DNA of 55,314 nucleotides. It comes from a virus. Location: IMG/VR virus record IMGVR_UViG_3300045988_177721, positions 1 to 55,314 of that record; one strand, given 5' to 3'. Positions 13,010-41,039 of the stretch are shown piece by piece. A program made the translations under genes and the position numbers. The first letter of the stretch is position 1. Each line of letters begins with the position of its first letter. The notes beneath the pieces are model-generated. The model was given only the letters and a program-made list of their open reading frames with translations. It made no database searches and was not told where the DNA came from.

Positions 13010-13204
13010 TTATAACGCCTCCCAATCATTAGCTAAGGTATTAGATATAGTTAAACCTAAATCACCTTCTGTAATTTCTTTTCCATTACTTAAATGAATA
13101 GTTAATTTGAAAGTTGATTGGTCGATAAACCAATAACCTTTCCAACCTTTTCTTCTAACCTTTAGACCTGCTTTCATCATTTTCCAAGCATCTCTAAATT
13201 TCAT
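13010..13204 (-). CDS. DUF2829-domain protein, Tad2-like (Thoeris anti-defence sponge family)
   Basis: 64 aa: MKFRDAWKMMKAGLKVRRKGWKGYW...NTLANDWEAL. This matches the DUF2829 signature (F.eAl.amk.GkkvrRkgW ... DWEi). It is embedded in the late operon and translationally coupled to the downstream gene. Confidence 0.6.
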   Translation of the reverse strand: MKFRDAWKMMKAGLKVRRKGWKGYWFIDQSTFKLTIHLSNGKEITEGDLGLTISNTLANDWEAL

Positions 13205-13207
13205 AAA

Positions 13208-13642
13208 TTATTCCTCGCTTTCGCTGATTTTTTCTAAATAGTCAATATCATCAACAAATTCTTCTTTTTTCTTAGCTACTTTCTTAGCAGGTTTTTCAAG
13301 AACTTTATCCTTGTTTAATTCTACTTCAATTTTTTGATTTCCTTTATTTAATTTATCTTTTAATGCTTTAGCTTCTTCTTTTTCAAAATCAGGTTCATCT
13401 GTATATTCACCAATAGTTATAACCTTATCTTTTTGTAGACATTTAACAGTGTTCCATTCAGTGATTTCACTTGGATAAAAATGAGAACCTTCTCTAATAG
13501 GAATAATACGTTTTGACCAAAGTGAGTTAATTTTTAAGCGGTCAGCAACATGAGCGTCTGGATTTGTTACATCCCTATACTCTAAACCAGATGTTACATT
13601 AATATTAATTTGTGATTGAATTCTTACATAAGCTTTTTTCAT
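13208..13642 (-). CDS. Hypothetical protein with K/E-rich helical C-terminus
   Basis: 144-aa ORF with RBS GGAGGAAA. Confidence 0.55.
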   Translation of the reverse strand: MKKAYVRIQSQININVTSGLEYRDVTNPDAHVADRLKINSLWSKRIIPIREGSHFYPSEITEWNTVKCLQKDKVITIGEYTDEPDFEKEEAKALKDKLNKGNQKIEVELNKDKVLEKPAKKVAKKKEEFVDDIDYLEKISESEE

Positions 13643-13668
13643 ATTTTAATTTCCTCCTTTTAAGCTTT

Positions 13669-13935
13669 TTAAAAATCATTTTCCATATCTATTATATATA
13701 CTCTCATAAATTCACCATTTAAGAATCTACATAAATTGTCTTTTCTTTGAAGAGCATTATATAATTCAACATTTATTAAATTTACATTTTGTCTAGTTAT
13801 TTCTTTATTTTGAAACTCTAGAATCTCTCGTACATTGTCGAATATGTAGAGTAATACTTCATCTGTCACATCATAAAAAGCGATGATATATTTATTTTTA
13901 TAGAATTTTACCTTTTCTTTTTCAAGAGGTAACAT
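13669..13935 (-). CDS. Hypothetical protein
   Basis: 88-aa ORF with RBS. Confidence 0.5.
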   Translation of the reverse strand: MLPLEKEKVKFYKNKYIIAFYDVTDEVLLYIFDNVREILEFQNKEITRQNVNLINVELYNALQRKDNLCRFLNGEFMRVYIIDMENDF

Positions 13936-13945
13936 AAATAATCAC

Positions 13946-15535
13946 CTACTTTTTAGAATGCTTAAATAGTTTTTTGAATAATGAATCTTTTTGTTTTGTT
14001 ATAAACTCATTTTCATTTTCTTTAATTTCATTTTCATTTTCTTCTTCAGGTTCATCCAAATCGATATTTTCAAATTCATCTTTAGTATTTTCTTCAAGTT
14101 CTTTTAAATATTCTTCATCAAAACCAAAATTAATTTCATTCTTATTAATAAAGTGTTGAAGAATTTCAGCATATTTCTTAGTTGTTAAAATACCATCACC
14201 TAACATACTTGATAATAAAGTTTGAAATTTAGATAAACCATCCATTCTTTCATCATCATGTTTTTTAATTAATAATGAATTAAATTCAAATTCAATATTT
14301 TCTTTGATATTGTATTTTTTGTAAAGAATCCACAAAAACTTTTCAAGGACTGGTCTAAAATAAGATTCAGCTCTATTTAAAATTGTTTCATCATATCTTT
14401 CTAATGCGTCCGTATCATTTGAGAATCCTTGTTTTAAATCTCCAAATAACACACCTTGCATTTCTAAAGCTGCAGAGATTAACCACATATTTTGTTCTAA
14501 TAACTCGGCTAATCCATTTAAACCTGAAAAACCATGTTCTTGGTATTCGTCTTCTTTATCTAAGAAGGTTAAACTGTTATATGTCCTACCCCAGTTAACC
14601 ATTTCTAACCTAGCTCGAAGTTGATTTTCTGAAGCTTCATCTTGACCCATGAAAACTCCTCTCATTCCAGCCATTTTGATAACTTCAATCAATGCTTTAT
14701 TAACTAAAGATTGAATTGATGCTTTAAGTTGGTCATCTCTCGATAATTCGTTAAGAATGTGAGCTCCTTCTGCATATCCCCAACCTTGAAGCTGACCAGT
14801 TTTAATTAATTTAGGAGCTGTACGGTGTTCATATCTAAGAATGAAATCATGATGAACATTCATGCTAACTCCATCTGCAAAAGTAATTCTATAAGTTTTA
14901 GGTTTACCGAAGTCTAAAGATTTCATATTTGACACAGTATCTTCTGAAACAACTCCTACACCATACCATCTGTCCGTAACATACAATCGAATACTTTTAG
15001 AATCTTGTATTTTCTTTAAATCCATAGGTTTAGCGTAATCTTCATTGTTCATAGTATCAAACATAACAACTGCTACTGACCCACCAAATAAAGCACCCCA
15101 TTGTAGAAGATTGATAAAATCAGTTCGATATTTTTTTAAATCTTTTAAAATCATATCTTTTTTTTCTTCGTCTTTTAAACTTAAAGTTATGCCACAACGA
15201 ACAACATCAGTTGATGGTTTATCAATAGCTCTTCTAAAAACCCAAGAATCGTTATACAGAGCTAACCACAAAGGCCAGTTTAGAGTATCATTTGAAAAAC
15301 CGTAATTAGTGAACGATTGAACTTTATCGTCAGTACCAATAGAACTTAGAGTATTTCCATAGTGGTCGTGAATTGAACTTTTCATTGCTTCAGAACTATT
15401 ACCTAAGTCAACTAATTTTTCTATTTTTTCTTCAGAGCTATCTTCTAATGTTTTTCTTTCACTATCTTTTAACTGCATTTCTTTCATCATAGCAATAACT
15501 TTAGAATTACTGTAATTTTTATTTTCCTCTGACAT
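13946..15535 (-). CDS. Putative portal protein
   Basis: 529 aa with an acidic C-terminal tail (EENTKDEFENIDLDEPEEENENE). It is the first gene of the late operon, and its size and acidic C-terminus are typical of portals. No family motif was verified. Confidence 0.4.
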   Translation of the reverse strand: MSEENKNYSNSKVIAMMKEMQLKDSERKTLEDSSEEKIEKLVDLGNSSEAMKSSIHDHYGNTLSSIGTDDKVQSFTNYGFSNDTLNWPLWLALYNDSWVFRRAIDKPSTDVVRCGITLSLKDEEKKDMILKDLKKYRTDFINLLQWGALFGGSVAVVMFDTMNNEDYAKPMDLKKIQDSKSIRLYVTDRWYGVGVVSEDTVSNMKSLDFGKPKTYRITFADGVSMNVHHDFILRYEHRTAPKLIKTGQLQGWGYAEGAHILNELSRDDQLKASIQSLVNKALIEVIKMAGMRGVFMGQDEASENQLRARLEMVNWGRTYNSLTFLDKEDEYQEHGFSGLNGLAELLEQNMWLISAALEMQGVLFGDLKQGFSNDTDALERYDETILNRAESYFRPVLEKFLWILYKKYNIKENIEFEFNSLLIKKHDDERMDGLSKFQTLLSSMLGDGILTTKKYAEILQHFINKNEINFGFDEEYLKELEENTKDEFENIDLDEPEEENENEIKENENEFITKQKDSLFKKLFKHSKK

Positions 15536-15569
15536 ATTGGAAAAATCCTCCTTTCTTTTTATATAATAT

Positions 15570-16147: not shown

Positions 16148-16196
16148 TTTACATACCTTTAAAAATGTGATATAATTAAATTGTAAAAATTAATAA
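16148..16196 (+). promoter_or_regulatory. Early promoter P1 (TTTACA-N17-TGaTATAAT) plus conserved leader ATTAAATTGTAAAAATTAAT
   Basis: -35 at 16148-16153, -10 at 16171-16176 with TG at -15/-14, A/T-rich upstream element (aaataaattatcat). The leader contains the inverted repeat ATTAA-N10-TTAAT. Confidence 0.75.
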
Positions 16197-16558: not shown

Positions 16559-16607
16559 TTTACATACTTTTAAAAGTGTGATATAATTAAATTGTAAAAA
16601 TTAATTT
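16559..16607 (+). promoter_or_regulatory. Early promoter P2 (same cassette)
   Basis: TTTACA 16559-16564, N17, TATAAT 16582-16587 with TG. The conserved leader is identical to P1. Confidence 0.75.
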
Positions 16608-17983: not shown

Positions 17984-18129
17984 ATTGGTCTTAAATTGAG
18001 AGGTGCAATTTTAGATATAAATTTAGCTGAAGGAAAACAGCGAAATCTAAAACCAACTAAATATTAATCAAATTGTTAAAAAGTAAAATATTGAAGACAC
18101 CTCCTTCAATAATCTTTAAAGGAGAAAAT

Positions 18130-18285
18130 ATGAAAAAATGTAAATTTACGTTAGCGTTAGATATAGACGGTGATGATATTGAACTTAACATTGCTTTTGA
18201 ATCTGAAAATTATGAAGATGCTATCGAATTTGTAAAAGATGTTATTAAACGTATGGATGTACTTAAGGAACTAGATGGTGAATGA
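18130..18285 (+). CDS. Hypothetical small early protein
   Basis: ORF track 18073..18285. The likely start is 18130 (MKKCKFTL), after RBS AAAGGAGAAAA. Confidence 0.5.
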   Translation: MKKCKFTLALDIDGDDIELNIAFESENYEDAIEFVKDVIKRMDVLKELDGE

Positions 18286-18569
18286 CTATGAAGAAAATTA
18301 AAGAAAATATAGATTTGAAAGAATTAGAAAAATATGGATATGAAGAAGAAAATTCAAGATATGTTAAATATACAAACGATACATATTATGATAATCCAAT
18401 AACCATTACTGTTAATAAATTTACAAGAATTATAGAAAAATGTTATGCTTGGAAGTGTATGTTAGGTCCAATATATCACTCGCCTATTATAAAAAATGAC
18501 AAACAGGTTAAACCTGATAAATATATCAAAGATTTAATAAAAGCAGGTTATGTGGAGGAGATAGAATGA
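18282..18569 (+). CDS. Hypothetical early protein
   Basis: 95-aa ORF that overlaps the stop of the upstream gene. Confidence 0.55.
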   Translation: MTMKKIKENIDLKELEKYGYEEENSRYVKYTNDTYYDNPITITVNKFTRIIEKCYAWKCMLGPIYHSPIIKNDKQVKPDKYIKDLIKAGYVEEIE

Positions 18570-18832
18570 GAAAGCGAATAATGTTAGTAGACCCACAAAT
18601 AAAAAACGAACCATTATATGTTGATTTTTATGATAAGCATTATGCACCAGTAATAAACGACCAATACGTTTGCGATTTAACACCAAAACAAGTTTTGCAA
18701 ATTATGAATAGTAATAGTTATGAATCAACAATTGTCGTGGATATAAACGTTATAAATGAGTTAGGAATTGATTATGAAATAATACCGAAATATGAAAATA
18801 AAAGATATTTTTTTAGAAAGGAGAATAAATAA
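18566..18832 (+). CDS. Hypothetical early protein
   Basis: 88-aa ORF with RBS GGAGGAG. Confidence 0.55.
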   Translation: MRKRIMLVDPQIKNEPLYVDFYDKHYAPVINDQYVCDLTPKQVLQIMNSNSYESTIVVDINVINELGIDYEIIPKYENKRYFFRKENK

Positions 18833-19443
18833 TGAAAATAACAGATTTTAAAAAAGAAGATTTAGAAAAAGGTATTATGATTAGAAGAAAGGGATGGGCA
18901 AAAGATATATCAATTTCTTTTAATAAAAGTGCTAGTATTTTTGATGCTTATATTAATGGAATTATAACAGGTGATAAAACAGATTTAACACTTGAAGATA
19001 TTACAAGTGATGATTGGGAAATAGCTGACGAACCTAATAAAAGCTGGAAGCCTAAAGAAGGTGATACCATTTTTTATATAACCGAATCAGGTAGAGTAAT
19101 ATCTGGCTCTTTTCTATCACTCTTACCTAGTGATAATGATAAAGTACTTTTTAACAATGCTTTTCAAACCAGAGAAGAAGCCGAACATATGCTTGAAAAA
19201 ATAAAAATTATTAATAAATTAAGAGAGTTATCAAATATTAATTTTAATGAAACTGATGACCACCATTATATGATTGTTTATCATAAGACTGATAATGAAA
19301 TAATTAGCGACTATTGCTTTAGTTTAAATCCAATACCCTTTAATGTATTTTTTAAGACTAGAGAAGACTGCCAAAAAGCCATTGAAACAATAGGCGAAGA
19401 TAATTTGAAGAAGTATTATTTTGATATTAAGGAGGAAAAATAA
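18832..19443 (+). CDS. Two-domain DUF2829 (Tad2-like) protein, paralog 1 of 3
   Basis: N-terminal ...GIMIRRKGWAK...TSDDWEIADE (DUF2829-like) followed by a roughly 140-aa C-terminal domain shared with 20945..21547 and 40401..41039. Shared motifs are WKPKeG, F.T.EEAeHm.EK.KiI..L, PFN.fF and IGEd.LKKYYFDiK. Confidence 0.55.
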   Translation: MKITDFKKEDLEKGIMIRRKGWAKDISISFNKSASIFDAYINGIITGDKTDLTLEDITSDDWEIADEPNKSWKPKEGDTIFYITESGRVISGSFLSLLPSDNDKVLFNNAFQTREEAEHMLEKIKIINKLRELSNINFNETDDHHYMIVYHKTDNEIISDYCFSLNPIPFNVFFKTREDCQKAIETIGEDNLKKYYFDIKEEK

Positions 19444-19622
19444 TGACGGATTTAGAAATGACAAAACAATTATTAGAAAGAATGCATTTTGGTTATGAAA
19501 TCAAAAATTGGAAGGCATGTATTGCAATGACCATATACGACTCAGATACGCTTATAGATATAACAACTTATGAATGTACTTTGTTATTTAATTTTGACGG
19601 TTCATATAGGGGGACGTTATAA
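19443..19622 (+). CDS. Small ORF (59 aa), not in the supplied track
   Basis: ATG at 19443 with RBS GGAGGAAAA. MTDLEMTKQLLERMHFGYEIKNWKAC... Confidence 0.35.
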   Translation: MTDLEMTKQLLERMHFGYEIKNWKACIAMTIYDSDTLIDITTYECTLLFNFDGSYRGTL

Positions 19623-19624
19623 TA

Positions 19625-19825
19625 ATGACATATGAAACAATTGTTAATTTTCAGGCATATAAAAAATATTATATAGAAGCAGATTCAAAAGAAGCTGCAA
19701 TTGATAAAGCAAAAGAAAAGATATGTGTTGATTATAAAACACGAGATATATTAAAAATTTATATAAAAGAAAAGGAAGAATTTATCGAAGATACAAATAT
19801 ATATAGAATGGAGAATAAACTATGA
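19625..19825 (+). CDS. Hypothetical small early protein
   Basis: 66-aa ORF. Confidence 0.5.
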   Translation: MTYETIVNFQAYKKYYIEADSKEAAIDKAKEKICVDYKTRDILKIYIKEKEEFIEDTNIYRMENKL

Positions 19826-20088
19826 ATTTTAATAACCTTGATTATTATGAAATGGATAAATTAAATGAAACTTATTTTAAAGATGATTACAATAGAATGA
19901 AAAAAAGAGAAATACCAATGTTAGTAGACTTAAATTATTATACTTATGAGGGAATTCAATCTAATATATTATATTATTATTGTCCTAATTGCTATAAAAA
20001 AATTAAAAGAAATCATAATTATTGTCCTACTTGTGGTCAACATTTATTATGGATTAACACAGATGTTAGTGGAGGAAGCTTTATATAA
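19822..20088 (+). CDS. Zinc-ribbon protein (CPNC...CPTCGQ)
   Basis: Two CxxC pairs. The C-terminal YCPTCGQHL is paralogous to YCPNCGQKI in 20263..20571. Confidence 0.55.
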   Translation: MNFNNLDYYEMDKLNETYFKDDYNRMKKREIPMLVDLNYYTYEGIQSNILYYYCPNCYKKIKRNHNYCPTCGQHLLWINTDVSGGSFI

Positions 20089-20261
20089 TGGAAGAATATA
20101 GAAAAGCTTTAAATAATTTAATTTCTAAAAAATATAATATTGAAGATATTCAAAAATTAAATGAGTTAATAAATGAACATGAAAAATTAAAAGAAGAATA
20201 TCAAAAATTAAAAGAAATTAATTTAATTTTAAAAGTATGGAATAATGGAAGGAAAATATAA
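20088..20261 (+). CDS. Small coiled-coil ORF (57 aa), not in the supplied track
   Basis: ATG at 20088 with RBS GGAGGA 9 nt upstream. MEEYRKALNNLISKKYNIEDIQKLNELINEHEKLKEEYQKLKEIN... Confidence 0.4.
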   Translation: MEEYRKALNNLISKKYNIEDIQKLNELINEHEKLKEEYQKLKEINLILKVWNNGRKI

Positions 20262-20262
20262 A

Positions 20263-20571
20263 ATGAAAGAAAAAAATAAATATCAAGAAGCGTTAGATAA
20301 TGCAGTAAGTGATATTGAATATTGTTATAATGATTCTTTTGAAGAGGTTCCTGAAAAACGCTTAAAAGAAGTCGAATTATTACAACAATTAGTAGATAAA
20401 GAAACGCCTAAAGAACCAATAGATAAAGGATTTAAAAATGACATTTTACAATATAAATGTCCAACTTGCAAAATTGGAAAAGTTGGCAGAATAATTGATA
20501 ATGGTTGGAAAACAAAAGGAGAAGGTTTTACTAACTATTGTCCTAATTGTGGTCAAAAAATAAAATGGTGA
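20263..20571 (+). CDS. Zinc-ribbon protein (CPTC...CPNCGQ)
   Basis: ORF track 20245..20571. The likely start is 20263, after RBS AAGGAA. It has two CxxC pairs. Confidence 0.55.
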   Translation: MKEKNKYQEALDNAVSDIEYCYNDSFEEVPEKRLKEVELLQQLVDKETPKEPIDKGFKNDILQYKCPTCKIGKVGRIIDNGWKTKGEGFTNYCPNCGQKIKW

Positions 20572-20585
20572 AGGTGAACAAAACA

Positions 20586-20915
20586 ATGGATTTTAAAGAA
20601 TTACACAAAGATATTGAAAGATATTTAGAAGATAATCACTATCGTATTCATATGGGTTATTCAACTTATAGTGATTTTGATTTACTTTTTTTCCCAAATC
20701 AAGACTGTAAATTACTTGGAAAAACAAAAGAAGTAATAATTTGTTTAGCACAAACTTATAGAGATGTTATGTTAAAAGAAAAAATTATTTTGTTTTTTCT
20801 TAAAGATGATAAAATTTGTAGGTCAACATATTATAATAAAACTGAAAAGAATTTAGAAATAGTTAAAGATATTTTAGAAAATGGAATCAATGGTAGAAAA
20901 TTTCCATTTGATTAA
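20586..20915 (+). CDS. Hypothetical early protein
   Basis: ORF track 20547..20915. The likely start is 20586 (MDFKELHK), with RBS GAAGGTGA. Confidence 0.5.
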   Translation: MDFKELHKDIERYLEDNHYRIHMGYSTYSDFDLLFFPNQDCKLLGKTKEVIICLAQTYRDVMLKEKIILFFLKDDKICRSTYYNKTEKNLEIVKDILENGINGRKFPFD

Positions 20916-20944
20916 TACAATAAAATGAAATGAGGAATAAAACA

Positions 20945-21547
20945 ATGGATTTTAAAGAAGCATATCAAAAAATGTTAGAAGGAAAGAAAGTTAAAAGAAA
21001 AGGTTGGGAAGACTGGCAATATTATAAATTAATTGGAGATAATATGTATTATGCTAACAAACTAATAGCTTCAAATGTTAGTATTGAAAACGCTTTAGCT
21101 AACGATTGGGAAGTTGTAGAAGAAACTAAAAGCAAAGTTTGGAAACCTAAAAAAGGTGAAAATTATTTTTTTATCACTAGCAGTTTAGAAGTTAATAAAT
21201 TTACAAATGAAGGAGATATGGTTGATGAAAGTATTATAGGCTGCGATAATTGTTTTAAAACTGAAGAAGAAGCTCAACATATGATAGAGAAGTTAAAAGT
21301 AATAAAAGAATTACAAAATTTTGCTTTAGAAAATAGAGATGAAGAAATTAGTTGGGATGAAGATAGTCGTTATAAATTTTATATTTACTTTGATTATAAG
21401 TGGAAAATGATAAGAATTACTTGGGCTACTGTAGCACATGGCTCTCCTTTTAATATATATTTTGCTTCAGAAAAAGCAATACATGATGCTATTGAATCTA
21501 TTGGTGAAGACAGAATTAAAAAATATTACTTTGATGTTAAAGATTAA
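20945..21547 (+). CDS. Two-domain DUF2829 (Tad2-like) protein, paralog 2 of 3
   Basis: MDFKEAYQKMLEGKKVKRKGWEDWQYYKL...ALANDWEVVEE is a canonical DUF2829 N-domain. The C-terminal domain is conserved with paralogs 1 and 3. Confidence 0.6.
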   Translation: MDFKEAYQKMLEGKKVKRKGWEDWQYYKLIGDNMYYANKLIASNVSIENALANDWEVVEETKSKVWKPKKGENYFFITSSLEVNKFTNEGDMVDESIIGCDNCFKTEEEAQHMIEKLKVIKELQNFALENRDEEISWDEDSRYKFYIYFDYKWKMIRITWATVAHGSPFNIYFASEKAIHDAIESIGEDRIKKYYFDVKD

Positions 21548-21596
21548 ATTTATAATAAAAGGTAGAATTAAAAAATATTATTAGAGGTGAAAGAAA

Positions 21597-22055
21597 ATGA
21601 TAATTAAAAAGAAATTAAAAGATATTAGTTTGGAAGAATTAAAAGTGTGGAGTATAAAAAATTGCAAACAATTAACTTGTGAAAAGTGTGTTTTTTCAAA
21701 AGTTTATTGTGATGAATCTTTAAGGAATTGCTGGATAAATAACAAAGATATTTATTCTGATAAATTTTTAAATCAAGAAATAGAAATTGAGACTGATATT
21801 TTATCTGAAAAAGAAAAAGAGTATTTAAAATCAATAATTAGACCTTTTAAAGATAGGGTTGAATATATTGAGAAAAAAATAAATATGAATTGCATAGGTA
21901 GAAGTTTTTATTATATTACAATAACAACTAAAAGTGTTGTTAATGATAATATAATGGAAATAACAGCTCTTCCTTATTTTAACTTAGAAAGCAAAATGTA
22001 TAATGGTATGGAACTCAACAAAGAATACACATTAAAAGAATTAAAATTATTATAG
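21597..22055 (+). CDS. Hypothetical protein with Cys-rich N-terminus
   Basis: 152-aa ORF with RBS GAGGTGAAAG. Confidence 0.55.
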   Translation: MIIKKKLKDISLEELKVWSIKNCKQLTCEKCVFSKVYCDESLRNCWINNKDIYSDKFLNQEIEIETDILSEKEKEYLKSIIRPFKDRVEYIEKKINMNCIGRSFYYITITTKSVVNDNIMEITALPYFNLESKMYNGMELNKEYTLKELKLL

Positions 22056-22279: not shown

Positions 22280-22328
22280 TTTTACATACTTTTAAAAATG
22301 TGATATAATTAAATTGTAAAAATTAATA
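22280..22328 (+). promoter_or_regulatory. Early promoter P3 (same cassette)
   Basis: TTTACA 22280-22285, N17, TATAAT 22303-22308 with TG. The leader is ATTAAATTGTAAAAATTAAT. Confidence 0.75.
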
Positions 22329-31373: not shown

Positions 31374-32609
31374 ATGAAAAGTAAAACAATTACAACATTA
31401 GTTGTTGAAGGAACTGACGGTGTTGGAAAAACAACATTATATAAAAATTTATTAGATTATTATAACTATATGTATTGTGTATATGATAGAGGAGAATTAT
31501 CAAATATTGTATATGCTGAAAAATACAATCGTCCATTTTGTTCAACACAAAGAGGTTTACCTATATTATATATTTTATTAATTTGTAATAAATCTGAATT
31601 AAAAAGAAGAATTATAGAAAGAGCTGAAAATGAAAAATGGTTAGCAAAAGATGTTAATAGTGAATTAAATAAGATAAATGACCAAGATAACTTTATTAAA
31701 TATTATGATTCTTTTAAAAAGGATTATCATATAATTAAAATTGATTGCACAAATTTAAATGAAAAAGAATTATTAAAATTAGCAGTTAAAGAAATAAATA
31801 ATTATGTTAATAATTTATCTATTGACGATAACTTAAGTTCGTGGAATGAATTATACAAATCAGGATGTGAAAAATTAGGATTAAAATTTAAGTGTATAAA
31901 TAATCAACCTTATATTAATAATGTACCGATTATGGCAGAATGTAATTTACACAACGGTATGTATGAAATGTTTGATAATAAAACAATTCCTCATAATTTA
32001 ATATATTGCCAAGCATATACTCAAAAAGAATTTATGTTTGATTGCGATTTTTCAATAGTTGATTTTTATGATAGGAAAGAAGATTTTTCATATATTATTA
32101 ATTCAAAAATTTTTTCGAGACGCGAGTTGTTTGATTATTTTAAAAAATTTACTGAAAATAATATATCATGTATTACTGGAGATATTTTTATCGATAATCC
32201 ATTAATTAAACGCTCTCCTCGAGTTTTTGGTGATGATTATATTAAAAAAATAGGAGAAGCAAAAGCAACTGTTTATGTTGCTAGAGAATTAGCATATTTA
32301 AAATATACAACAACTAGATTATATGAAAGTATTTTAGCAAAGCAAATAATATTTGTTGATAAATTATCTGACCCTGAATGTATTATTTTAAATTCAATTT
32401 ATAAAAATTCAAAATATAAAAGTACTTTAATATCATTATTATATGTTGATGAAAATTCAATTTGTGATAATTATAAAATAATTCTTAATGATTATAATTT
32501 GGTTAATGAAATTATAATAAATCAATTTAATTATTATAACGAATTAAAAGCAAGTGTATTAACAAATAATTTATTTATTCAATTAGGAGATAAAAATGAA
32601 AGTAATTAA
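31374..32609 (+). CDS. Thymidylate-kinase-like dNMP kinase fused to a roughly 200-aa C-terminal domain of unknown function
   Basis: P-loop VVEGTDGVGKTTL (Tmk signature EG.DG.GKTT) and YDRGELSNIVY (the DRY/Ss region of Tmk). The 411-aa length is about twice that of a Tmk. Confidence 0.65.
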   Translation: MKSKTITTLVVEGTDGVGKTTLYKNLLDYYNYMYCVYDRGELSNIVYAEKYNRPFCSTQRGLPILYILLICNKSELKRRIIERAENEKWLAKDVNSELNKINDQDNFIKYYDSFKKDYHIIKIDCTNLNEKELLKLAVKEINNYVNNLSIDDNLSSWNELYKSGCEKLGLKFKCINNQPYINNVPIMAECNLHNGMYEMFDNKTIPHNLIYCQAYTQKEFMFDCDFSIVDFYDRKEDFSYIINSKIFSRRELFDYFKKFTENNISCITGDIFIDNPLIKRSPRVFGDDYIKKIGEAKATVYVARELAYLKYTTTRLYESILAKQIIFVDKLSDPECIILNSIYKNSKYKSTLISLLYVDENSICDNYKIILNDYNLVNEIIINQFNYYNELKASVLTNNLFIQLGDKNESN

Positions 32610-33345
32610 AGGAAATACAATAACAGATGTATATAAAGAATTAATAGATTATTTATTAAGTGAAAGTATTGAATGTAATAATGGAACAAAAGAAATTGAA
32701 AATGGTATTTTAGAAATATTAAATCCTTCATTAGAAAATATCAATTTTCCATATCGTCATATTTCGATAAAATATTCTGATGCTGAACTTGAATGGTATT
32801 GGAAAGCACATAATTCATGTGATGAAATAGGAAAATTTGCTAAAATGTGGTTAAATTTAACAGATGATGGAAAAACTAATAATTCTGCATATGGATATAT
32901 TTTATTCAAAAAATATAACTTTAATCAATTAGAGCAAATTATAGAATTATTAAAAAAAGATATTGACAGTAGAAGAGCAGTATTAAATATTTCTGACCCA
33001 ACAATTAATAGAATAACAACAAAAGATATGCAATGTACAATTGGACTTCAATTTTTAATTAGAAATAATAAATTAAATATGACAGTATATATGAGGAGTA
33101 ATGATGTATATTTTGGACTTCCATATGATTATATCTTCTTTGAGAGTATTCATCAATATATTTTTATGAGATTAAAAGAATGTTATTCTGAATTAAAATT
33201 AGGTTCTTATACACATGTTGCAACATCATTACATATGTATAATAGAGATGTAGAAAAATTTAAAACTCAAAAATCAAATTTTATTTCAATAGATATGGAT
33301 AAAATAAAAAAATATTATAAAGAAGGAGATTCTATAAAATGTTAA
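32596..33345 (+). CDS. Thymidylate-synthase-family pyrimidine C5-modifying enzyme with Asp at the ThyA Asn177 position (dCMP hydroxymethylase-like)
   Basis: It aligns to ThyA around the catalytic Cys: QCTIGLQFLIRNNKLNMTVYMRSNDVYFGLPYD versus [33 protein letters not shown], with Q, F, K, L, Y, R, S, D, V, G, L, P conserved at identical offsets. Upstream DSRRAVLNISDP matches ThyA DSRRIIVSAWNP, and AELEWYWKA matches ELLWFLKG. The residue 31 positions after the Cys is Asp rather than Asn. Confidence 0.7.
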   Translation: MKVIKGNTITDVYKELIDYLLSESIECNNGTKEIENGILEILNPSLENINFPYRHISIKYSDAELEWYWKAHNSCDEIGKFAKMWLNLTDDGKTNNSAYGYILFKKYNFNQLEQIIELLKKDIDSRRAVLNISDPTINRITTKDMQCTIGLQFLIRNNKLNMTVYMRSNDVYFGLPYDYIFFESIHQYIFMRLKECYSELKLGSYTHVATSLHMYNRDVEKFKTQKSNFISIDMDKIKKYYKEGDSIKC

Positions 33346-34574: not shown

Positions 34575-36374
34575 ATGAATACTTTTAAAATTGTTATTTT
34601 TGATTTTGAAGTATTTAAGTATAATACTTTATTAGGAGCAATCGTAATTAATGATGGTGAAATTAACTTATTTCAATCATGGGATTTAGATGAAATTAAA
34701 AACTTTTACAAAGAACATATTAATGATATCTGGGTAGGTCATAATAATGAAAGATATGATAATTTTATATTACAATCTATTATTTGTAATATAAATCCAT
34801 ATATAACATCTAAAACAATAATTAATTCTGATGAATTCAAATATAAAAAATTAGGTATTCATTTATATTATTTTGATATTTTTTTAAATCATCCAGGTTC
34901 ATTAAAAGCAATAGAATGTGGAAATGGTAAAAACATTTCTGAAACAAATGTAGAGTTTGATATTAATAGAGAATTAACGATTGAAGAGAAAGAATTAACA
35001 GAATCATATAACTTTGATGATTTAGAGCAAACATTTGAAAATTTTTTAGAAATTTTTGAAGAGTTAAAATTAAGATTGTTAATGATTCAAGAATTTAATT
35101 TAGATATGACAGTATTACACTGCTCTGAAACTCAATGTGCTGAAAAAGTATTGAAATCAACAAAAATTGAAGGTATTGAAAATTGTTATGTTGCTCCTAA
35201 AATTTATCCTGATATGCAAGTAAAAAATCAAGATGTATTAAATTTTTATTTAAAAGAAAAATTTAGGATGGAAAATCAATCATTTATATTTGATTTATGT
35301 GGAGTACCACACAAATTAGCAAAAGGTGGTTTACATGGTGCTGAAAAGTTTTGTCATGTTGATTGGGCTTATTATTTTGACGTTTCAGGATATTATAATT
35401 TAATAATGATTTTAAAAGGATTATTACCTAGAACAATTCCTGATGAAGGTAAAAAATTATATGAATATATGTATCATAAACAATTAGAGTTAAAAATAAC
35501 AAATCCTATTATGAGACCTGTGTATAAAACAATTTTACTTGCAGTGTTTGGTTCAATGTTAAATAAATGGACTCAATTTTATGACCCTCAGCGCGGTACT
35601 TTAGTTACTATTTTAGGACAATTATACATTATTGATTTATTAGAGAAATTAGAAGGTAAAATAAGATTAATACAAACAAATACAGATGGTGTAATTGCGA
35701 AACCATTAAATGAAAAATATGAAAAAGAAATGATTGATATAATTAATGAATGGCAAAAAAGAACAGGATTTACATTAAAATTTGATAAAATATATGACAT
35801 TCATCAAAGAGATGTTAACAACTATATGTACAGAGATGAAAAAGGAAAAATTAATGTTCATGGAGAATTAGTTAAATATTATGATTCATGGGAGAAAGTT
35901 CTTCAAAAAGATGTATTCAATACAAAAGAACCTCCGATAATTCATCATGGAGTAGTTGAATTTTATATGAATAAAAAGTTACCAGAGCAAACTGTTGAAG
36001 AAAATAAAAATAATTTAAGAATGTTTCAATATTGTTGTCGAAAAAACTCATTTGATTGGTTAGAATATGAAGAAATTAATTTAGAAAATGGTGAAATAAA
36101 AACTATAAAACTTCAACACGTTAATAGAGCGTTTGCAATGAAATCTGATAAATACTTAGGAATGATTTACAAACGAAAATATGTAGGTAAAACAACAAAA
36201 GCTAAAGCTCAAAATTTACCTGATTCTGTTTTTGTTTATAATCATGAAATACTTTCTAAAGAAACAGTTAATAAATTAGTTAACGAAATTGATTATGATT
36301 ACTACGTTAAAAGAATATACGAAAGAATTAAAGAATTAATATATATTCCAATCATAAAGGATTTAAAGATATGA
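34575..36374 (+). CDS. Compact family-B DNA polymerase with N-terminal 3'-5' exonuclease (phi29-size)
   Basis: Exo I IFDFEV; Exo II GHNNERYDNFIL (compare phi29 HNLKFDGAFI); Exo III Y..D; motif A YYFDVSGYYN (Dx2SLYP-like); motif B K..L.AVFGSMLNK; motif C IQTNTDGVI. 599 aa. Confidence 0.6.
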   Translation: MNTFKIVIFDFEVFKYNTLLGAIVINDGEINLFQSWDLDEIKNFYKEHINDIWVGHNNERYDNFILQSIICNINPYITSKTIINSDEFKYKKLGIHLYYFDIFLNHPGSLKAIECGNGKNISETNVEFDINRELTIEEKELTESYNFDDLEQTFENFLEIFEELKLRLLMIQEFNLDMTVLHCSETQCAEKVLKSTKIEGIENCYVAPKIYPDMQVKNQDVLNFYLKEKFRMENQSFIFDLCGVPHKLAKGGLHGAEKFCHVDWAYYFDVSGYYNLIMILKGLLPRTIPDEGKKLYEYMYHKQLELKITNPIMRPVYKTILLAVFGSMLNKWTQFYDPQRGTLVTILGQLYIIDLLEKLEGKIRLIQTNTDGVIAKPLNEKYEKEMIDIINEWQKRTGFTLKFDKIYDIHQRDVNNYMYRDEKGKINVHGELVKYYDSWEKVLQKDVFNTKEPPIIHHGVVEFYMNKKLPEQTVEENKNNLRMFQYCCRKNSFDWLEYEEINLENGEIKTIKLQHVNRAFAMKSDKYLGMIYKRKYVGKTTKAKAQNLPDSVFVYNHEILSKETVNKLVNEIDYDYYVKRIYERIKELIYIPIIKDLKI

Positions 36375-37207
36375 ATAAAAGAATAGAAAATGAAATTAGA
36401 AAAATATATATCTCTGTTTTTAATAAAGTTTATAAAAATGTTAAAAAAGAAAAGATATTATATAGTAAAAATAAACAAGAGAGAATAGATGATATTATTT
36501 TAAGATTAGAAAATTCAAAAAAATATAAAGAGTTTGCTGAAAAATTTGCAAAAGAATTATCAAAAAGAGGTTTATCTCAACAAAGAGGTATATGGAGAAA
36601 ATTTTATGCAGCTGCAAAACAAAAGAAACATATTGTATTACCTTCAACCTATAAAGAATTTGAATTATTACAATTTAAAAAAGCAGTGTTACATAATCTA
36701 AAAATGATTAAATCAATTCCAGATGAAGTAAAAGAAGTATATAAATATAAATATACTAAAACATTAATAAATTCAGTAGTTTTAGGTAAAGTTGGAAGAA
36801 AAACTTTTGAAAAAGAACTTTTAGAATCTGGAGCAAAGAGAGCAAAATTAATTGCTCGAACCGAAACAGCTAAATTACAAACTGCTATATTAGAAAATCG
36901 TTCATCGGATTTAGGTTCAATAGCGTATATTTGGAAATCGTCAAATGACAGACGAACTAGACAATCACATAAAGAAATGAACAATGTTGTTGTATTTTGG
37001 AGAAAAAATTTAGAAAAACCTTTATTAGATGGAATGTATGGTAATGCAGGAGAATTTCCAAATTGTAGATGCACACCACTACCAATTTTTGATGAAAGTG
37101 ATTTAAGTAAAAATGTATATAAATTATATGATTATCGAAATCATACAATTGTAAGTGTAACAAAATTTGAATTATTACAATTCATGAATAATAAACAAAT
37201 ATTTTAA
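36371..37207 (+). CDS. Phage minor head protein, MuF / SPP1 gp7-like
   Basis: C-terminal GEFPNCRCTPLP (the NCRC motif of the Phage_Mu_F family). 278 aa. It sits upstream of the terminase. Confidence 0.55.
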   Translation: MNKRIENEIRKIYISVFNKVYKNVKKEKILYSKNKQERIDDIILRLENSKKYKEFAEKFAKELSKRGLSQQRGIWRKFYAAAKQKKHIVLPSTYKEFELLQFKKAVLHNLKMIKSIPDEVKEVYKYKYTKTLINSVVLGKVGRKTFEKELLESGAKRAKLIARTETAKLQTAILENRSSDLGSIAYIWKSSNDRRTRQSHKEMNNVVVFWRKNLEKPLLDGMYGNAGEFPNCRCTPLPIFDESDLSKNVYKLYDYRNHTIVSVTKFELLQFMNNKQIF

Positions 37208-37279
37208 AATATAAAGCTTAAAAACAATAGTTTTTTAAACTTTAAAAAATTATTTATATAAATATATAGGAGGAATAAT

Positions 37280-37609
37280 ATGAGTGAAAAAACATATATA
37301 AATAAATTAGAAGAAATGATTGAGTCTAGAGAAGAAGCAATCGAAAATTTAAGAAATGTTATTAACGACCAATTAGCGGTAATAGAGGTTTTAAGTAAAG
37401 ATGATGAAGGTAAAAAAAATAAAAGATTTACAAAATTAATAGATGAATTAAAAGAACAAACAAATGTTCTTGGAAAAAATATAGAGAAATTAACAACTAA
37501 AAACGTAAATACTACTAAATTAATTGAAATATTAAGAGATAATAAGGAATATGATAGAATTTGTACTTTAGTAATTGATGAACTTGAAATATTTAAAGAA
37601 GAAAATTAA
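37280..37609 (+). CDS. Small coiled-coil protein immediately upstream of TerL (candidate terminase small subunit)
   Basis: 109 aa with RBS AGGAGGAATAA. Its stop is 2 nt before the TerL start. Confidence 0.4.
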   Translation: MSEKTYINKLEEMIESREEAIENLRNVINDQLAVIEVLSKDDEGKKNKRFTKLIDELKEQTNVLGKNIEKLTTKNVNTTKLIEILRDNKEYDRICTLVIDELEIFKEEN

Positions 37610-37611
37610 AT

Positions 37612-39621
37612 ATGAATATTTTAGAAAAAACTTTATATCGAGAATTATATCGTAAAAGTTTTTATGAATTTGTAAAAGATTTTTGGAGCGAAGCAGACCC
37701 ATCAAAATTAGTTGATGGTAAATTGATTCAATTATATTGCGAAATCTTTCAGTATCTTTGTAAACCTTGGATTGGTTATGAAGAAATAAATGTAGAATTA
37801 CCTAAATTAAAAGAAGATGATATATTAATTGATATTCGAGGAAAGAAAAATAAAATAATTATAAATGTTCCTCCTCGTCATTCAAAATCAATGATATTTA
37901 ATGTTTTAGGACCGACTTGGATTTGGTCATATTTCCCTATTAAAGCTGCATCAATTTCTCATACAGGCGGGTTAGCTAAAAAAATGAATATGAAACGACA
38001 ATCTTTAATATCTTCAGAAAGATATAAAGAAATCTACCCCGATATTAAAATTATTACAGATTCTAACACATCACTAATTGATTCCAGAGGAGGGGAATTA
38101 TATTCATTAAATAAAAATGCATTTACCGGTTATGGTGGAGATATAATTATTAATGATGACTTAACAAATGCAGAAACAGCGAGAAAAGATATGGAAGAAA
38201 TGAATAATTCTTGGGAATATTATCGTAATACAATGCCTTCCCGAATTAATGATATAAATAAATGTATAATTTTAAATATTCAACAGAGGTTAGCTCCAAA
38301 TGATGTTACAGGAAGAATTTTATCAGATTCTAAATTATCAAAAAATTATATTCATTTAGTATTACCTGCTAAATTTGATAGAGATACATATGTTGTTTGT
38401 CCTATTTCAGGAGATATATTAGTTTGGAAAAAAGGTGAATATTTATGGCCTGAAAGATTTGGAAATTATGAATCTTTAAGAGACGATGTTGGTGAAGTTA
38501 TTTGGAAAACACAATATCTTCAAAACCCAACCGCAACCGATAAAACCGTATTTAAAGAAGATATGCTTGTTTTAAAGGATAAAAATGAAGTTCCTGGAAT
38601 TGAATATGCAGATATGATTTATGCTTCTCACGATTTCCCAGTTAAGGATAAAGAAAAGTCAGATAATTTAGGAAGTGTTTTAGGTTATAAGATAGGAGCA
38701 ACACTCTATATAATTGATTGCTTGGAAAAGAAAATGGGATTTACGGCCGGTGTAAATTACGTAAGACAATTAGATTCTCATTATCTAGGTTCAATTCAAA
38801 TTATTGAAGATAAAGCAAATGGAAGTCCTATTATTGAACAACTTCAAGATGAAATTCCAGGAATTCAAGCATATAACCCTGGAACAAATTCAAAAGTCCA
38901 AAGAGCTGAATCAAGTTCATTATATATACAAAATGTTGTTTTTGTTAAAACTAAATTTAATAAATTTACTAATACATATGAACTTTCAGAGTCATTAAAA
39001 AATTTAATTCAAAGATTGTTAGATTTTCCTTTTGTTAAACATGATGATATCGTCGATGCATTTACTATGTTAGTATTATTTGTATTTATGGATAGAAGAT
39101 ACAGTGTTTATGGAAGGTCATTTAATGATTATAATATTTGTGATATTTCACAATTTAAAAATTTAGATTATTCAACTATTTTCTTTAACAGAGAAGGAGA
39201 TATTTGGAAAGCATTAGAAATATCAGTTCTTTATGGAGTAACAACTAAATTAGTTGTAAAAAAAGAAATAAGATTTAAATCATCTGTTGAGGAAGGATTA
39301 TTGAAATTAAAAGAATTTTCAAACGGTAAAAATATATTTATTGATTGTAGTGAGAGTAGTGCACTACGAGGAATGTATTCAAATGGATATACGATTGAAA
39401 GATATGAAATTGAAGATTTTGAACAATCTGTTGCTCAAGTAAATCTCGCATTTTCAAAAAAATTAATTTTAATTGATAAAAATTGTAAACTATGTGTGTC
39501 AGATATTGATACCTTTAAATTTTCAAAAACTAAAGATGAAACTGTTAAATATAAAACAACAAAAGATGGTTTTGTTTCTTGTTTGAGAACAGCGTTAAAA
39601 TATTATGGAGGTATTGTTTAG
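37612..39621 (+). CDS. terL: Terminase large subunit
   Basis: N-terminal SFYEFVKDFW is typical of TerL. ATPase region IIINVPPRHSKS / GGDIIINDDLTN. The nuclease motif FVKHDDIVDAFTMLV matches the terminase RNase-H-like DDxxDA signature. A roughly 200-aa extra C-terminal extension follows the nuclease domain. Confidence 0.8.
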   Translation: MNILEKTLYRELYRKSFYEFVKDFWSEADPSKLVDGKLIQLYCEIFQYLCKPWIGYEEINVELPKLKEDDILIDIRGKKNKIIINVPPRHSKSMIFNVLGPTWIWSYFPIKAASISHTGGLAKKMNMKRQSLISSERYKEIYPDIKIITDSNTSLIDSRGGELYSLNKNAFTGYGGDIIINDDLTNAETARKDMEEMNNSWEYYRNTMPSRINDINKCIILNIQQRLAPNDVTGRILSDSKLSKNYIHLVLPAKFDRDTYVVCPISGDILVWKKGEYLWPERFGNYESLRDDVGEVIWKTQYLQNPTATDKTVFKEDMLVLKDKNEVPGIEYADMIYASHDFPVKDKEKSDNLGSVLGYKIGATLYIIDCLEKKMGFTAGVNYVRQLDSHYLGSIQIIEDKANGSPIIEQLQDEIPGIQAYNPGTNSKVQRAESSSLYIQNVVFVKTKFNKFTNTYELSESLKNLIQRLLDFPFVKHDDIVDAFTMLVLFVFMDRRYSVYGRSFNDYNICDISQFKNLDYSTIFFNREGDIWKALEISVLYGVTTKLVVKKEIRFKSSVEEGLLKLKEFSNGKNIFIDCSESSALRGMYSNGYTIERYEIEDFEQSVAQVNLAFSKKLILIDKNCKLCVSDIDTFKFSKTKDETVKYKTTKDGFVSCLRTALKYYGGIV

Positions 39622-39642
39622 TACCTTCTTTTATTTTTTTTT
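39607..39642 (+). terminator. Intrinsic terminator after terL
   Basis: Hairpin GGAGGTA-ttgtttag-TACCTTC (7 bp including one G.U) followed by TTTTATTTTTTTTT. It overlaps the terL stop. Confidence 0.55.
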
Positions 39643-39662: not shown

Positions 39663-39711
39663 TTTACATACTTTTAAAACTGTGATATAATTAAATTGTA
39701 AAAATTAATAA
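39663..39711 (+). promoter_or_regulatory. Early promoter P5 (same cassette)
   Basis: TTTACA 39663-39668, N17, TATAAT 39686-39691 with TG, plus the conserved leader. Confidence 0.75.
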
Positions 39712-39729: not shown

Positions 39730-39933
39730 ATGAAAGAATTAATATTAAATGAAGAAGAAAGTCAAGTATTATTAGAACAAGGATATATTGAAATTGAACG
39801 TAACGGATTTCTATTAAGTTTAACAGAAAATTCAAATTTTAATAAAAATAAAAAAGAAAGTGTTTTTAATAGAAAATATTTAGTAAATATTGTTGATACT
39901 TTTGATAAAATTATTATTAATGAAGACAAATAA
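39730..39933 (+). CDS. Hypothetical small protein
   Basis: 67-aa ORF with RBS AAAGGAGA. Confidence 0.5.
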   Translation: MKELILNEEESQVLLEQGYIEIERNGFLLSLTENSNFNKNKKESVFNRKYLVNIVDTFDKIIINEDK

Positions 39934-39946
39934 GGAGATTGAATAT

Positions 39947-40165
39947 ATGAAAATAATTGAATTAAATAAAGATGAAATTGGATTATTAAAACTTGGTTAT
40001 TGTGTTGAAAAGAAAGTAAATGGTATTGTGTACAACGTTTATCTTGAAAATGGAAAATACAAAGCATATCGAAAATTAAAAGGACTCTATAATGGTACAT
40101 CATATATGAATTATAGAGAATCTATAAACCCTACTAAGTTTAATTTTAAAGAGAAAGAACTTTAA
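39947..40165 (+). CDS. Hypothetical small protein
   Basis: ORF track 39890..40165. The likely start is 39947 (MKIIELNK), after RBS AAGGAGATTG. Confidence 0.5.
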   Translation: MKIIELNKDEIGLLKLGYCVEKKVNGIVYNVYLENGKYKAYRKLKGLYNGTSYMNYRESINPTKFNFKEKEL

Positions 40166-40184
40166 TTTTAAGGTTCTTTTTCTT
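40154..40184 (+). terminator. Intrinsic terminator (AAAGAACTTT-loop-AAGGTTCTTT plus TTCTT)
   Basis: About 10-bp stem with one U.G pair, 6-nt loop and a U-rich tail. It overlaps the stop codon at 40163-40165. Confidence 0.5.
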
Positions 40185-40248
40185 AAAACCAGCATTGAAT
40201 GGTTGCAACTCCATTATGTGAAAGGTTGAGCAAGAAAGAGAGTAAATT

Positions 40249-40383
40249 ATGAAAAAATGTGTACTTTGCGGAAAAGAATTTAGTGGTTATGGAAATAATG
40301 CAGAACATCTTAAAAAAGGTGTATGCTGTGATGAATGTAATCAAAAAGTTATATTAGAGAGAATTCTTTTATTAATTAAATAA
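40249..40383 (+). CDS. Small zinc-ribbon ORF (44 aa), not in the supplied track
   Basis: MKKCVLCGKEFSGYGNNAEHLKKGVCCDECNQKVILERILLLIK, with RBS GAAAGG upstream. CxxC ... CxxC. Confidence 0.4.
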   Translation: MKKCVLCGKEFSGYGNNAEHLKKGVCCDECNQKVILERILLLIK

Positions 40384-40400
40384 GGAGGAATAAAAAAAAT

Positions 40401-41039
40401 ATGAATTTTAGTGAAGCTTTATATAAAATGAAAGAAGGAAAAAAAGTAAAAAATGAATTTTTAAATAAACATGGATACTTATACATGTTTTTAGATAAAG
40501 AAAAAGGTATTATGATTAGAACTCTTAATGATGAATACGATGAAATTTATGAAAATTTATCTACAGAAGAACTTTTATCAGAAAATTGGGAAATATATGA
40601 AGAGTCTAAATGGAAACCGAAAGAAAAAGAATTATATTTTTATATTACTTCAAATGGAGACATAGAATTTAGTTATTATAAAAATAAAAGTATAAATGAT
40701 AAACGTCGTATTTATGATATTGGTAATTATTTTAAAACGGATGAAAAAGCTGAACATATTGTGGAGAAGTTAAAAATAATAAGAGAGCTACAAGATTTTG
40801 CTTTAGAGAATAATGACAAAAACGTTGATTGGAGAGATAAATGCACAGGTAAATATTTTATAACTTATGATTTTTATGATGAAGAAATCTCAATCGCTAG
40901 TTATACTTTTAGAAATTTTTTACCATTTAATATTTTCTTTACTTCAAAAGAGATAGCTCAAAAAGCTATTACAAAAATAGGAAAAGAACGACTTGAAAGA
41001 TATTACTTTGATATAAAAGAAAAAGAAGAAATAAAATAA
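40401..41039 (+). CDS. Two-domain DUF2829 (Tad2-like) protein, paralog 3 of 3
   Basis: MNFSEALYKMKEGKKVKNEF...LSENWEIYEE N-domain, with a C-terminal domain conserved with paralogs 1 and 2 (WKPKEKELYFYITS, FKTDEKAEHIVEKLKIIRELQDFALEN, PFNIFFTS, IGKERLERYYFDIKE). Confidence 0.55.
   Translation: MNFSEALYKMKEGKKVKNEFLNKHGYLYMFLDKEKGIMIRTLNDEYDEIYENLSTEELLSENWEIYEESKWKPKEKELYFYITSNGDIEFSYYKNKSINDKRRIYDIGNYFKTDEKAEHIVEKLKIIRELQDFALENNDKNVDWRDKCTGKYFITYDFYDEEISIASYTFRNFLPFNIFFTSKEIAQKAITKIGKERLERYYFDIKEKEEIK

Follow-up and report, generated by a model that had tools for sequence, protein, structure and literature searches.

Four Tad2-fold genes of a human-gut phage, three of them carrying the C-terminal domain of a large uncharacterised phage family

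The window analysed here, i.e., the whole 55,314-nucleotide stretch of the human-gut phage record IMGVR_UViG_3300045988_177721, contains four genes with a Tad2-like (DUF2829) domain, one short and three long, named below by their first position (Table 1). All four open reading frames of the original prediction are present, and a Shine–Dalgarno-like sequence (GAGGA for the 13010 gene) lies 8–11 nt 5′ of each of them. The start of the second long gene was set at 20945, not at the ATG at 20930, because of the ribosome-binding site and the 200-aa homologues. Six-frame scans of the window with local HMMs yielded exactly four N-domains and three C-domains, the next matches having E > 0.2, in agreement with the predicted copy number. 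A near-identity search of 24 kb of DNA against 50,697 phage records gave no match, no tRNAs were found that would assist host assignment, and a scan of bacterial genomes produced relatives with at most 43% identity, almost all of them in Bacillota MAGs.

Table 1. Genes and other features discussed in the text; positions are those of the window.
Feature	Position	Strand	Details
64-aa single-domain DUF2829/Tad2-like gene	13010..13204	-	ORF; PF11195 28.3 bits; leave-out profile 54 bits
Extended -10 promoter-like element	16559..16587	+	5′ of the block with the 18832 and 20945 genes
Hypervariable early-gene island with two long paralogs	18073..21600	+	Identity to IMGVR_UViG_3300045988_176542
203-aa two-domain gene	18832..19443	+	N-domain about 18832-19041, C-domain 19042-19440
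200-aa two-domain gene	20945..21547	+	N-domain 20945-21130, C-domain 21131-21544
Copy of promoter-like element	22281-22309	+	Next copy after 16559..16587
Terminator-like hairpin	39607-39628		Just before the 39663..39691 element
Promoter-like element	39663..39691	+	Heads the small unit ending with the 40401 gene
212-aa two-domain gene	40401..41039	+	N-domain 40401-40607, C-domain 40608-41036
Copy of promoter-like element	41053-41081	+	After the stop codon of the 40401 gene

The three long proteins are paralogs that align over the full length, the 18832 protein being the most divergent (31–35% identity to the other two). Their C-domains share 37–42% identity and 34 invariant columns, including the motif blocks by which the common C-terminal domain had been recognised originally, and match the local family profile (about 135 aa) over the full length with 209–239 bits.

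Affiliation with the Tad2 family, predicted for all four genes, is directly visible with the Pfam profile PF11195 (Tad2-like; gathering threshold 25 bits) for two of them, the 64-aa 13010 gene (28.3 bits) and the 20945 gene (28.2 bits), while the 40401 gene (22.2 bits) and the 18832 gene (13.2 bits, E 0.13) score below the threshold. Leave-out profiles, from which all sequences with 35% or more identity to the respective target had been excluded, gave 40–54 bits on all four N-domains (54 for 13010, 44 for 40401, 40 for 18832); these scores and the paralogy link all four genes to Tad2/DUF2829. The fusion-family profile also matches Tad2 chains in the PDB (E 1e-4). The Tad2 fold (α1, antiparallel sheet, α3) is present in the N-domains; for the divergent 18832 protein, the AF2 model shows the same α1-β1-4-α3-β5 topology. 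Weak matches of the N-domain profile to tail-tube entries (8v3t, 6gkx; E 0.08) were taken as chance.

In SPO1 Tad2, gcADPR is contacted by W25, N26, W73, S76, T78, and D79, with N26 and W73 among the main contacts; the HgmTad2 counterparts are W21, N22, W87, S90, T92, and D93, respectively, and binding is markedly reduced in the W21A/N22A double mutant. These positions were compared by aligning the four genes and 48 related fusion N-domains to SPO1, Mod, and Spt Tad2 with MAFFT. W25 is retained in three genes out of four, and D79 corresponds to N, D, N, and E across the four genes. Judging from the alignment, other residues take the place of N26, W73, and T78 in each of the four genes: K, A, or E for N26 (the 40401 protein has N in that column of the automatic alignment, yet lacks the GW motif), L, T, S, and E for W73, and S, E, E, and E for T78. 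The 48 fusion domains behave similarly, with N26 kept in four, W73 in none, and T78 changed to E in 33. The signature F.eAl.amk.GkkvrRkgW...DWEal, described as canonical in the original prediction, marks the fold and not the ligand site, and the ligand pocket, whose conservation had been named as a check, is altered both in the window and among the relatives. The glutamates at positions 26 and 78 are added acidic residues and would disfavour phosphate binding at the canonical site. Li et al. report conservation of the gcADPR site in about 99% of the Tad2 homologues, which makes the present clade an outlier.

The domain is also shorter than the known Tad2 proteins (SPO1 Gp34.65, ModTad2, HgmTad2/AcrIIA7, and SptTad2, all of PF11195), 62–70 aa vs. 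85–104 aa. The β2–β3 insertion with helix α2, which forms the Tad2 dimer interface and, in HgmTad2, also the cyclic-dinucleotide site, is absent, so that about 25 residues of the Tad2 chains have no counterpart in the HMMER and MAFFT alignments; likewise, the predicted model of the N-domain shows no α2. With this dimerisation segment missing, even oligomerisation is uncertain. In addition, three of the copies, unlike Tad2 proteins, carry the 135-aa C-terminal domain.

It thus seems very unlikely that all four genes encode working Tad2 sponges that capture the Thoeris signal gcADPR in a canonical pocket, the C-domain providing a second ligand site or an oligomeric change and the early and late copies together covering the infection. 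The confirmed fold, the two genes above the PF11195 threshold, W25 in three genes, D or N at position 79 in three, and the functional versatility of Tad2 family members are consistent with such sponges, but N26 and W73 are missing from all four genes, and the HgmTad2 mutant, the residue counts in the 48 fusion domains, and the deviation from the 99% rule all argue against them. Moreover, it has been argued that a sponge must be expressed early, whereas the short copy is encoded late, in the structural module.

The genomic context of the long and short copies agrees with the original prediction. A sigma-70-like promoter element with a near-identical spacer, TTTACA-N14-TGnTATAAT, occurs in six copies, all on the plus strand, vs. 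0.28 expected by chance, and is found upstream of all three long genes, which agrees with the predicted early promoters. The small transcription unit of the 40401 gene lies between the genes for the large terminase and a helicase (PHROGs). The 13010 gene, predicted to be late, is part of the structural operon, where the portal (13946–15535) and tail-fibre (11431–13029) genes flank it (PHROGs); it overlaps the start of the tail-fibre gene by 20 nt.

The 64-aa gene appears to be a separate case. A homology search with its product returned only two clusters, the sensitivity being limited by the word-index method. Its nearest relatives in cultured phages, Clostridium CP51 and phiCT19406A and Dorea DO134P1, are located directly 3′ of portal and minor-head genes, and in the related genome IMGVR_UViG_3300045988_176542 the protein is 98% identical, similarly to the structural proteins. 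This slowly evolving late gene may differ in role from the long copies, as suggested by the recurrence of short DUF2829 genes in the head modules of unrelated phages, and cover throughout infection by short and long copies, as proposed originally, is speculation. A head-module or virion-associated small protein, with a part in assembly or packaged inside the capsid, and not a sponge, is conceivable although rather unlikely; it would explain both the late-operon position and the slow evolution, and the overlap with the tail-fibre gene fits as well. On the other hand, such positions also host moron-type cargo genes, and the relative in Lactobacillus phage LpeD has MazG-like and RNA ligase genes as its neighbours.

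The C-domain defines a very large, uncharacterised family restricted to phages, and the three long genes belong to it. With clustering at 50% identity, the family amounts to about 3,500 clusters; the C-domain profile matches 3,508 representatives when E ≤ 1e-3 is required, and 1,024 when the limit is E ≤ 1e-10. Genes of this family occur only in phages or prophages and are abundant in gut phages and prophages of Bacillota. Most members are stand-alone, lacking any Tad2 domain, so that the C-domain is not a Tad2 accessory. In most of them, some 35 aa of helical leader precede the C-domain; in the low-GC gut-phage lineage studied here, the minimal Tad2-fold domain takes the place of this leader; a zinc ribbon and an SH3-like module also occur, the N-terminal modules being interchangeable.

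The C-domain itself is of α/β type and about 135 aa long, and its conserved motifs are WKP, GNCFKTxEEA, and IGEDRIKKYYF. It has no enzyme-like invariant residues and no obvious pocket; the conserved polar residues resemble helix caps plus a basic/aromatic cluster, R190 K192 K193 Y194 Y195. The proteins are mildly acidic (pI about 5), which is not extreme enough for a DNA mimic. A comparison with hhalign is suggestive of, and does not establish, an internal duplication of a unit consisting of a β-hairpin and an F-x-[TS]-x-E-x-A helix (49% probability, 14 columns only). The C-domains of the window proteins have no match in Pfam at E ≤ 1, nor in NCBIfam or PADLOC, and only weak matches in PHROGs, all without an assigned function, in line with the original description of the domain as conserved and uncharacterised. 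The PDB search gave no solved-structure match, the BFVD search gave only uncharacterised viral proteins, and the motif strings were absent from those supplements of two 2025 sponge preprints that were searched.

Among the matches listed for 42 C-domain family members (first 25 of 75 families), DUF7336 (PF24024) is the sole Pfam family with recurrent weak matches, in seven of the 42 (best E 0.014); all are below the threshold (at most 16 bits vs. 25), and in the one member mapped the match lies over the GNCFKT-EEA region. A literature search retrieved no paper mentioning DUF7336. By sequence or predicted fold, stand-alone C-domains are encoded by genes 27–29 of Aerococcus phage AVP and by Stenotrophomonas phages BUCT702/704, with structural relatives in Lactobacillus phages Iacchus/Semele and Fusobacterium phage Fnu1. 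These cultured-phage proteins often come in two or three copies per genome, as here; they have no Tad2-like N-domain and are all annotated as hypothetical.

The original statement that no DUF2829 fusion had been characterised applies to the present partner domain, but not in general, as Tad2–Acb4 and Tad2–PF21825 (Sequestin) fusions have been described, with the Acb4–Tad2 fusion and stand-alone PF21825 proteins assayed (Tal et al., 2025, bioRxiv 10.1101/2025.07.12.664507). As in those fusions, a Tad2-type domain is joined in one polypeptide to an independently occurring, mostly stand-alone phage domain; unlike in them, the partner is larger (about 135 aa) and mixed α/β, and the Tad2 part lacks the canonical site. 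Neither Acb4 (PF13876) nor Sequestin (PF21825) matched the window proteins at E ≤ 1, and neither was among the matches listed (first 25 of 75 families) for the 42 family members.

Comparison with the above-mentioned relative, IMGVR_UViG_3300045988_176542, demonstrates fast divergence of the long genes. Island proteins are mostly 51–86% identical to their counterparts (the exception is 18282–18566, 97%), vs. 92–100% for the flanking structural and replication genes; the long paralogs show 57% (18832), 84% (20945), and 67% (40401), and the named genes downstream of the 40401 gene again 92–100%. The 18832 locus is duplicated in the relative, and the comparison also reveals a recombinant junction between paralog cassettes. 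In 118 orthologues, conservation is 79% in the N-domain vs. 64% in the C-domain, with variability concentrated in the hairpins and loops of the latter.

No known anti-defence genes were found next to the long genes. Typical neighbours of C-domain genes are early, replication, and recombination genes (DUF3799, RusA, SSB, YopX, DUF1064, helicases), and the C-domain family might serve phage replication, recombination, or regulation as an accessory or adaptor, with the Tad2 fold as a swappable scaffold and no counter-defence role. The exchange of N-terminal modules and the label of phrog_643, a PHROG related to the N-domain (transcriptional regulator), are compatible with this role, which we nevertheless consider doubtful: the acidic proteins are a poor fit to DNA binding, no neighbour gene is conserved across 81 loci (the best, a zinc-ribbon family, occurs in 17), and genomes contain several divergent paralogs that change in copy number and diverge far faster than the adjacent replication genes.

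The reading that we favour, albeit tentatively, is that the long genes encode non-enzymatic binders, made early, that would neutralise a host factor and so act in host interaction or counter-defence. The target would be either a defence protein or an immune signal other than one bound via the canonical gcADPR site; the conserved Tad2-fold domain would provide homo-oligomerisation and possibly a diverged ligand site, and the variable β-hairpins of the C-domain, together with the conserved basic/aromatic patch, would confer specificity. A precedent is that the domains fused to Tad2, Acb4 and Sequestin, turned out to be sponges (10.1101/2025.07.12.664507). Besides, about a quarter of the sponge homologues assayed had no inhibitory effect on any of the seven systems used and may recognise signals not yet known (10.1101/2025.08.24.671296). 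Several points speak against our reading. The canonical site is degenerate, the α2 segment is missing, and the neighbourhood of the long genes yielded no known anti-defence genes. Known sponges often measure less than 100 aa (Tal et al., 10.1101/2025.07.12.664507), and the C-domain exceeds most of them in size, is mildly acidic, and does not obviously form a pocket. Finally, rapid divergence and an early time of expression would suit any kind of host interaction, not counter-defence alone.

A more specific version of the favoured reading, possible but less probable, makes the C-domain a new, very large counter-defence family, either an immune-signal sponge or a direct inhibitor of defence proteins, with the Tad2-fold part as a diverged sponge or oligomerisation module for an unknown signal. 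Sequestin was found as a new sponge family via its Tad2 fusion in a screen limited to Pfam-annotated partners (10.1101/2025.07.12.664507); the C-domain, if of this kind, would have escaped the earlier fusion-based screens for lack of a Pfam entry.

A PF11195 match alone does not mean “anti-Thoeris,” as a whole clade has the fold and lacks the ligand site. The partner domain described here has no library annotation and no solved-structure relative, yet is abundant. If it acts against host immunity, a large family would be added to the phage counter-defence repertoire. Sponges have earlier served as probes for discovering new signals, and thus the C-domain might point to a new signalling molecule or defence system.

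All four open reading frames of the original prediction are present in the phage genome (GC content 25%), each with a Shine–Dalgarno-like sequence. The ribosome-binding site and the length of homologues favor 20945 as the start of the second long gene, and a human-gut metagenome contig of 55,386 bp encodes an identical 200-aa protein. The expected Pfam matches were obtained in part: the 64-aa and 20945 proteins exceed the 25-bit threshold of PF11195, the Tad2-like model, whereas the 40401 and 18832 proteins do not. These two are still homologous: each N-domain scores 40–54 bits on profiles restricted to sequences that share less than 35% identity with it, and the three long proteins can be aligned end to end. 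Six-frame HMM scans of the window yielded exactly four copies of the N-domain (Tad2 fold) and three of the second, C-terminal domain (C-domain), with no further copy of either. The fold assignment is known biology, and some homologues have already been labeled DUF2829 by automated pipelines.

The sequence profile of the fusion family matches Tad2 chains at E 1e-4, and the lower-confidence model of the 18832 protein (pLDDT 74.5) has the secondary-structure elements in the same order. In SPO1 Tad2, W25, N26, W73, D79, and also T78, S76, and others contact 1''-3' gcADPR (10.1101/2023.05.01.538930), and binding by HgmTad2, whose gcADPR site about 99% of homologues are reported to share, is markedly reduced by W21A/N22A and by S90A/T92A/D93A (10.1101/2023.11.15.567273). 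An alignment of the window proteins to Tad2 of SPO1, Mod, and Spt gave the substitutions in the table; the 40401 protein has EFL where Tad2 has GWN. None of 48 fusion-type N-domains retains W73, four retain N26, and T78 is glutamate in 33, with the fold motif D-W retained in 46–48. Unlike Tad2, the window N-domains have no β2–β3 insertion bearing helix α2, which forms the dimer interface in Tad2 and the cyclic-dinucleotide site in HgmTad2. Judging from the alignment, these substitutions and the missing insertion indicate that the known determinants of binding have been lost from the window's clade, which retains the Tad2 scaffold. A canonical gcADPR sponge is unlikely. A 168-aa protein of another sequence record (L052) has two tandem Tad2-like domains, the second of which (PF11195, 81 bits) is far more canonical than any window copy.

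The short gene differs from the long ones in its behavior: 98% conserved in the closest relative, it is the third after the portal gene in the minus-strand structural operon and overlaps a tail-fiber gene. Its closest relatives in cultured phages belong to Clostridium phages CP51 and phiCT19406A and Dorea phage DO134P1; in Lactobacillus phage LpeD, the relative sits elsewhere. The N-domain of the short protein is most similar (45%) to that of certain fusion proteins, so the short and long forms have probably exchanged this module. Also on the minus strand is a gene for a 985-aa protein, of which the N-terminal ~300 residues, followed by ~680 others, match head-maturation protease profiles.

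The C-domain forms a family in its own right, very large and without annotation. When 1.84 billion cluster representatives were searched with a profile of the three C-domains, 3,508 proteins matched at E ≤ 1e-3, of which 1,024 reached E ≤ 1e-10. The best 150 matches comprise 98 stand-alone proteins of ~165 aa that begin with a ~35-aa helical leader, about 25 with a Tad2-like N-domain, and 17 with other N-terminal regions, a few of them SH3-like or zinc-ribbon-like at sub-threshold Pfam scores. Among the matches listed, nothing rose above noise in Pfam, PHROGs, NCBIfam, or PADLOC, except for recurrent sub-threshold Pfam matches to DUF7336 (seven of 42 members), for which we found no literature and whose function is likewise undescribed; a BFVD structure search returned uncharacterized viral proteins only. 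Cultured phages with the domain are few, among them Stenotrophomonas phages BUCT702/704 and Aerococcus phage AVP (Herelleviridae), in which three tandem stand-alone genes lie directly downstream of rIIA/rIIB; the two-domain fusion was not found among 50,697 phage records. In the model, a long helix joins two β-hairpin-plus-helix units, possibly an internal duplication. Conserved positions appear structural (helix-capping N/T/S residues), except for a basic/aromatic cluster (R190, K192, K193, Y194, Y195), and show no sign of catalysis.

The long genes diverge rapidly. In the closest IMG/VR relative (a 58,242-bp contig), structural and replication proteins are 92–100% identical to those of the window, versus 57, 84, and 67% for the 18832, 20945, and 40401 proteins. 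The 18832 locus is duplicated there, and the 40401 orthologue is preceded by a copy (90% identical) of the gene that lies upstream of 20945 and by approximately the first 50 nt of 20945 itself, a hybrid arrangement that indicates recombination between paralog cassettes. In 118 orthologues of the 20945 protein, conservation is 79% for the N-domain versus 64% for the C-domain, with variability mostly in C-domain hairpins and loops. Across 79 IMG/VR loci, the fusion is restricted to low-GC relatives (as many as three copies within 20 kb), and outside these the form is stand-alone, at times in tandem. Matches in bacterial genomes are distant and nearly all from Bacillota MAGs; a stand-alone form is on record from an Anaerobutyricum soehngenii MAG as well as from contigs of chromosome size.

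Six near-identical copies of a promoter-like element of 29 nt with an extended −10, TTTACATACTTTTAAAAATGTGATATAAT, are present, on the plus strand only (0.28 expected by chance); the element appears to split the early/middle block into transcription units. As such elements head the units of the long genes, their proposed expression from early promoters is plausible. The head-morphogenesis and large terminase genes lie apart from the other structural genes, which are on the minus strand.

Table. Coordinates of the features discussed (window positions unless a record is named; substitutions relative to SPO1 Tad2).
Feature	Position	Strand	Remarks
Short gene	13010-13204	-	PF11195 28.3 bits; N26K, W73L, T78S, D79N
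Long gene 18832	18832-19443	+	13.2 bits; N26A, W73T, T78E, D79 kept
Long gene 20945	20945-21547	+	28.2 bits; N26E, W73S, T78E, D79N
Long gene 40401	40401-41039	+	22.2 bits; W73E, T78E, D79E
CP51 relative	L095 4001-4207		Head module, directly after portal and minor-head genes
phiCT19406A relative	L096 4001-4201		Head module, directly after portal and minor-head genes
DO134P1 relative	L097 4001-4495		Head module after portal and minor-head genes; N-terminus of 164-aa protein
Two tandem Tad2-like domains	L052 19528-20031	+	
AVP genes 27-29	L001 5016-6408		Annotated hypothetical
Recombinant junction	L094 897-1910		Versus window 20547-20996 and 40401-41036
Paralogous zinc-ribbon small proteins	19822-20088, 20245-20571	+	Between long genes
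Promoter-like element TTTACATACTTTTAAAAATGTGATATAAT	16148-16176	+	
Promoter-like element	16559-16587	+	Heads small-gene block with 18832 and 20945 genes
Promoter-like element	22281-22309	+	
Promoter-like element	28328-28356	+	
Promoter-like element	39663-39691	+	After terminator-like hairpin 3' of terminase gene; heads small unit ending in 40401 gene
Promoter-like element	41053-41081	+	3' of 40401 stop codon
985-aa protein	908-3865	-	
MuF/gp7-like and large terminase genes	36371-39621	+	3' of DNA polymerase
Nucleotide-metabolism genes	25971-26399, 31374-33345		And other small ORFs

No neighbor gene is conserved beside C-domain genes in 81 loci; the most frequent co-occurring family is the zinc-ribbon one (17 loci), and the genes nearby are of the usual early, replication, and recombination types. 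That the long proteins serve the replication or regulation of the phage itself is a serious rival explanation, if a somewhat doubtful one. The window is also dense in nucleotide-metabolism genes (dCMP deaminase, dUTPase, and dCTP-deaminase-like, thymidylate-synthase-like, and thymidylate-kinase-like genes), which might point to modified DNA bases. Among 57 small ORFs, no known sponge or other anti-defense Pfam family was found.

The reading with most support makes the long proteins early, non-enzymatic players in the host–phage arms race. By analogy with the Tad2-Acb4 and Tad2-Sequestin fusions, where the partner domain proved to be a sponge (10.1101/2025.07.12.664507), it is quite conceivable, though short of probable, that they act as bivalent sequestering or inhibitory proteins, in which oligomerization would fall to the conserved Tad2-fold domain and variable specificity to the C-domain.

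What is new is a Tad2-fold clade without the ligand site, its fusion to a phage domain whose huge family has neither a name nor a match among solved structures, and the multi-copy cassettes that evolve fast. The C-domain may, tentatively, be a new counter-defense family.
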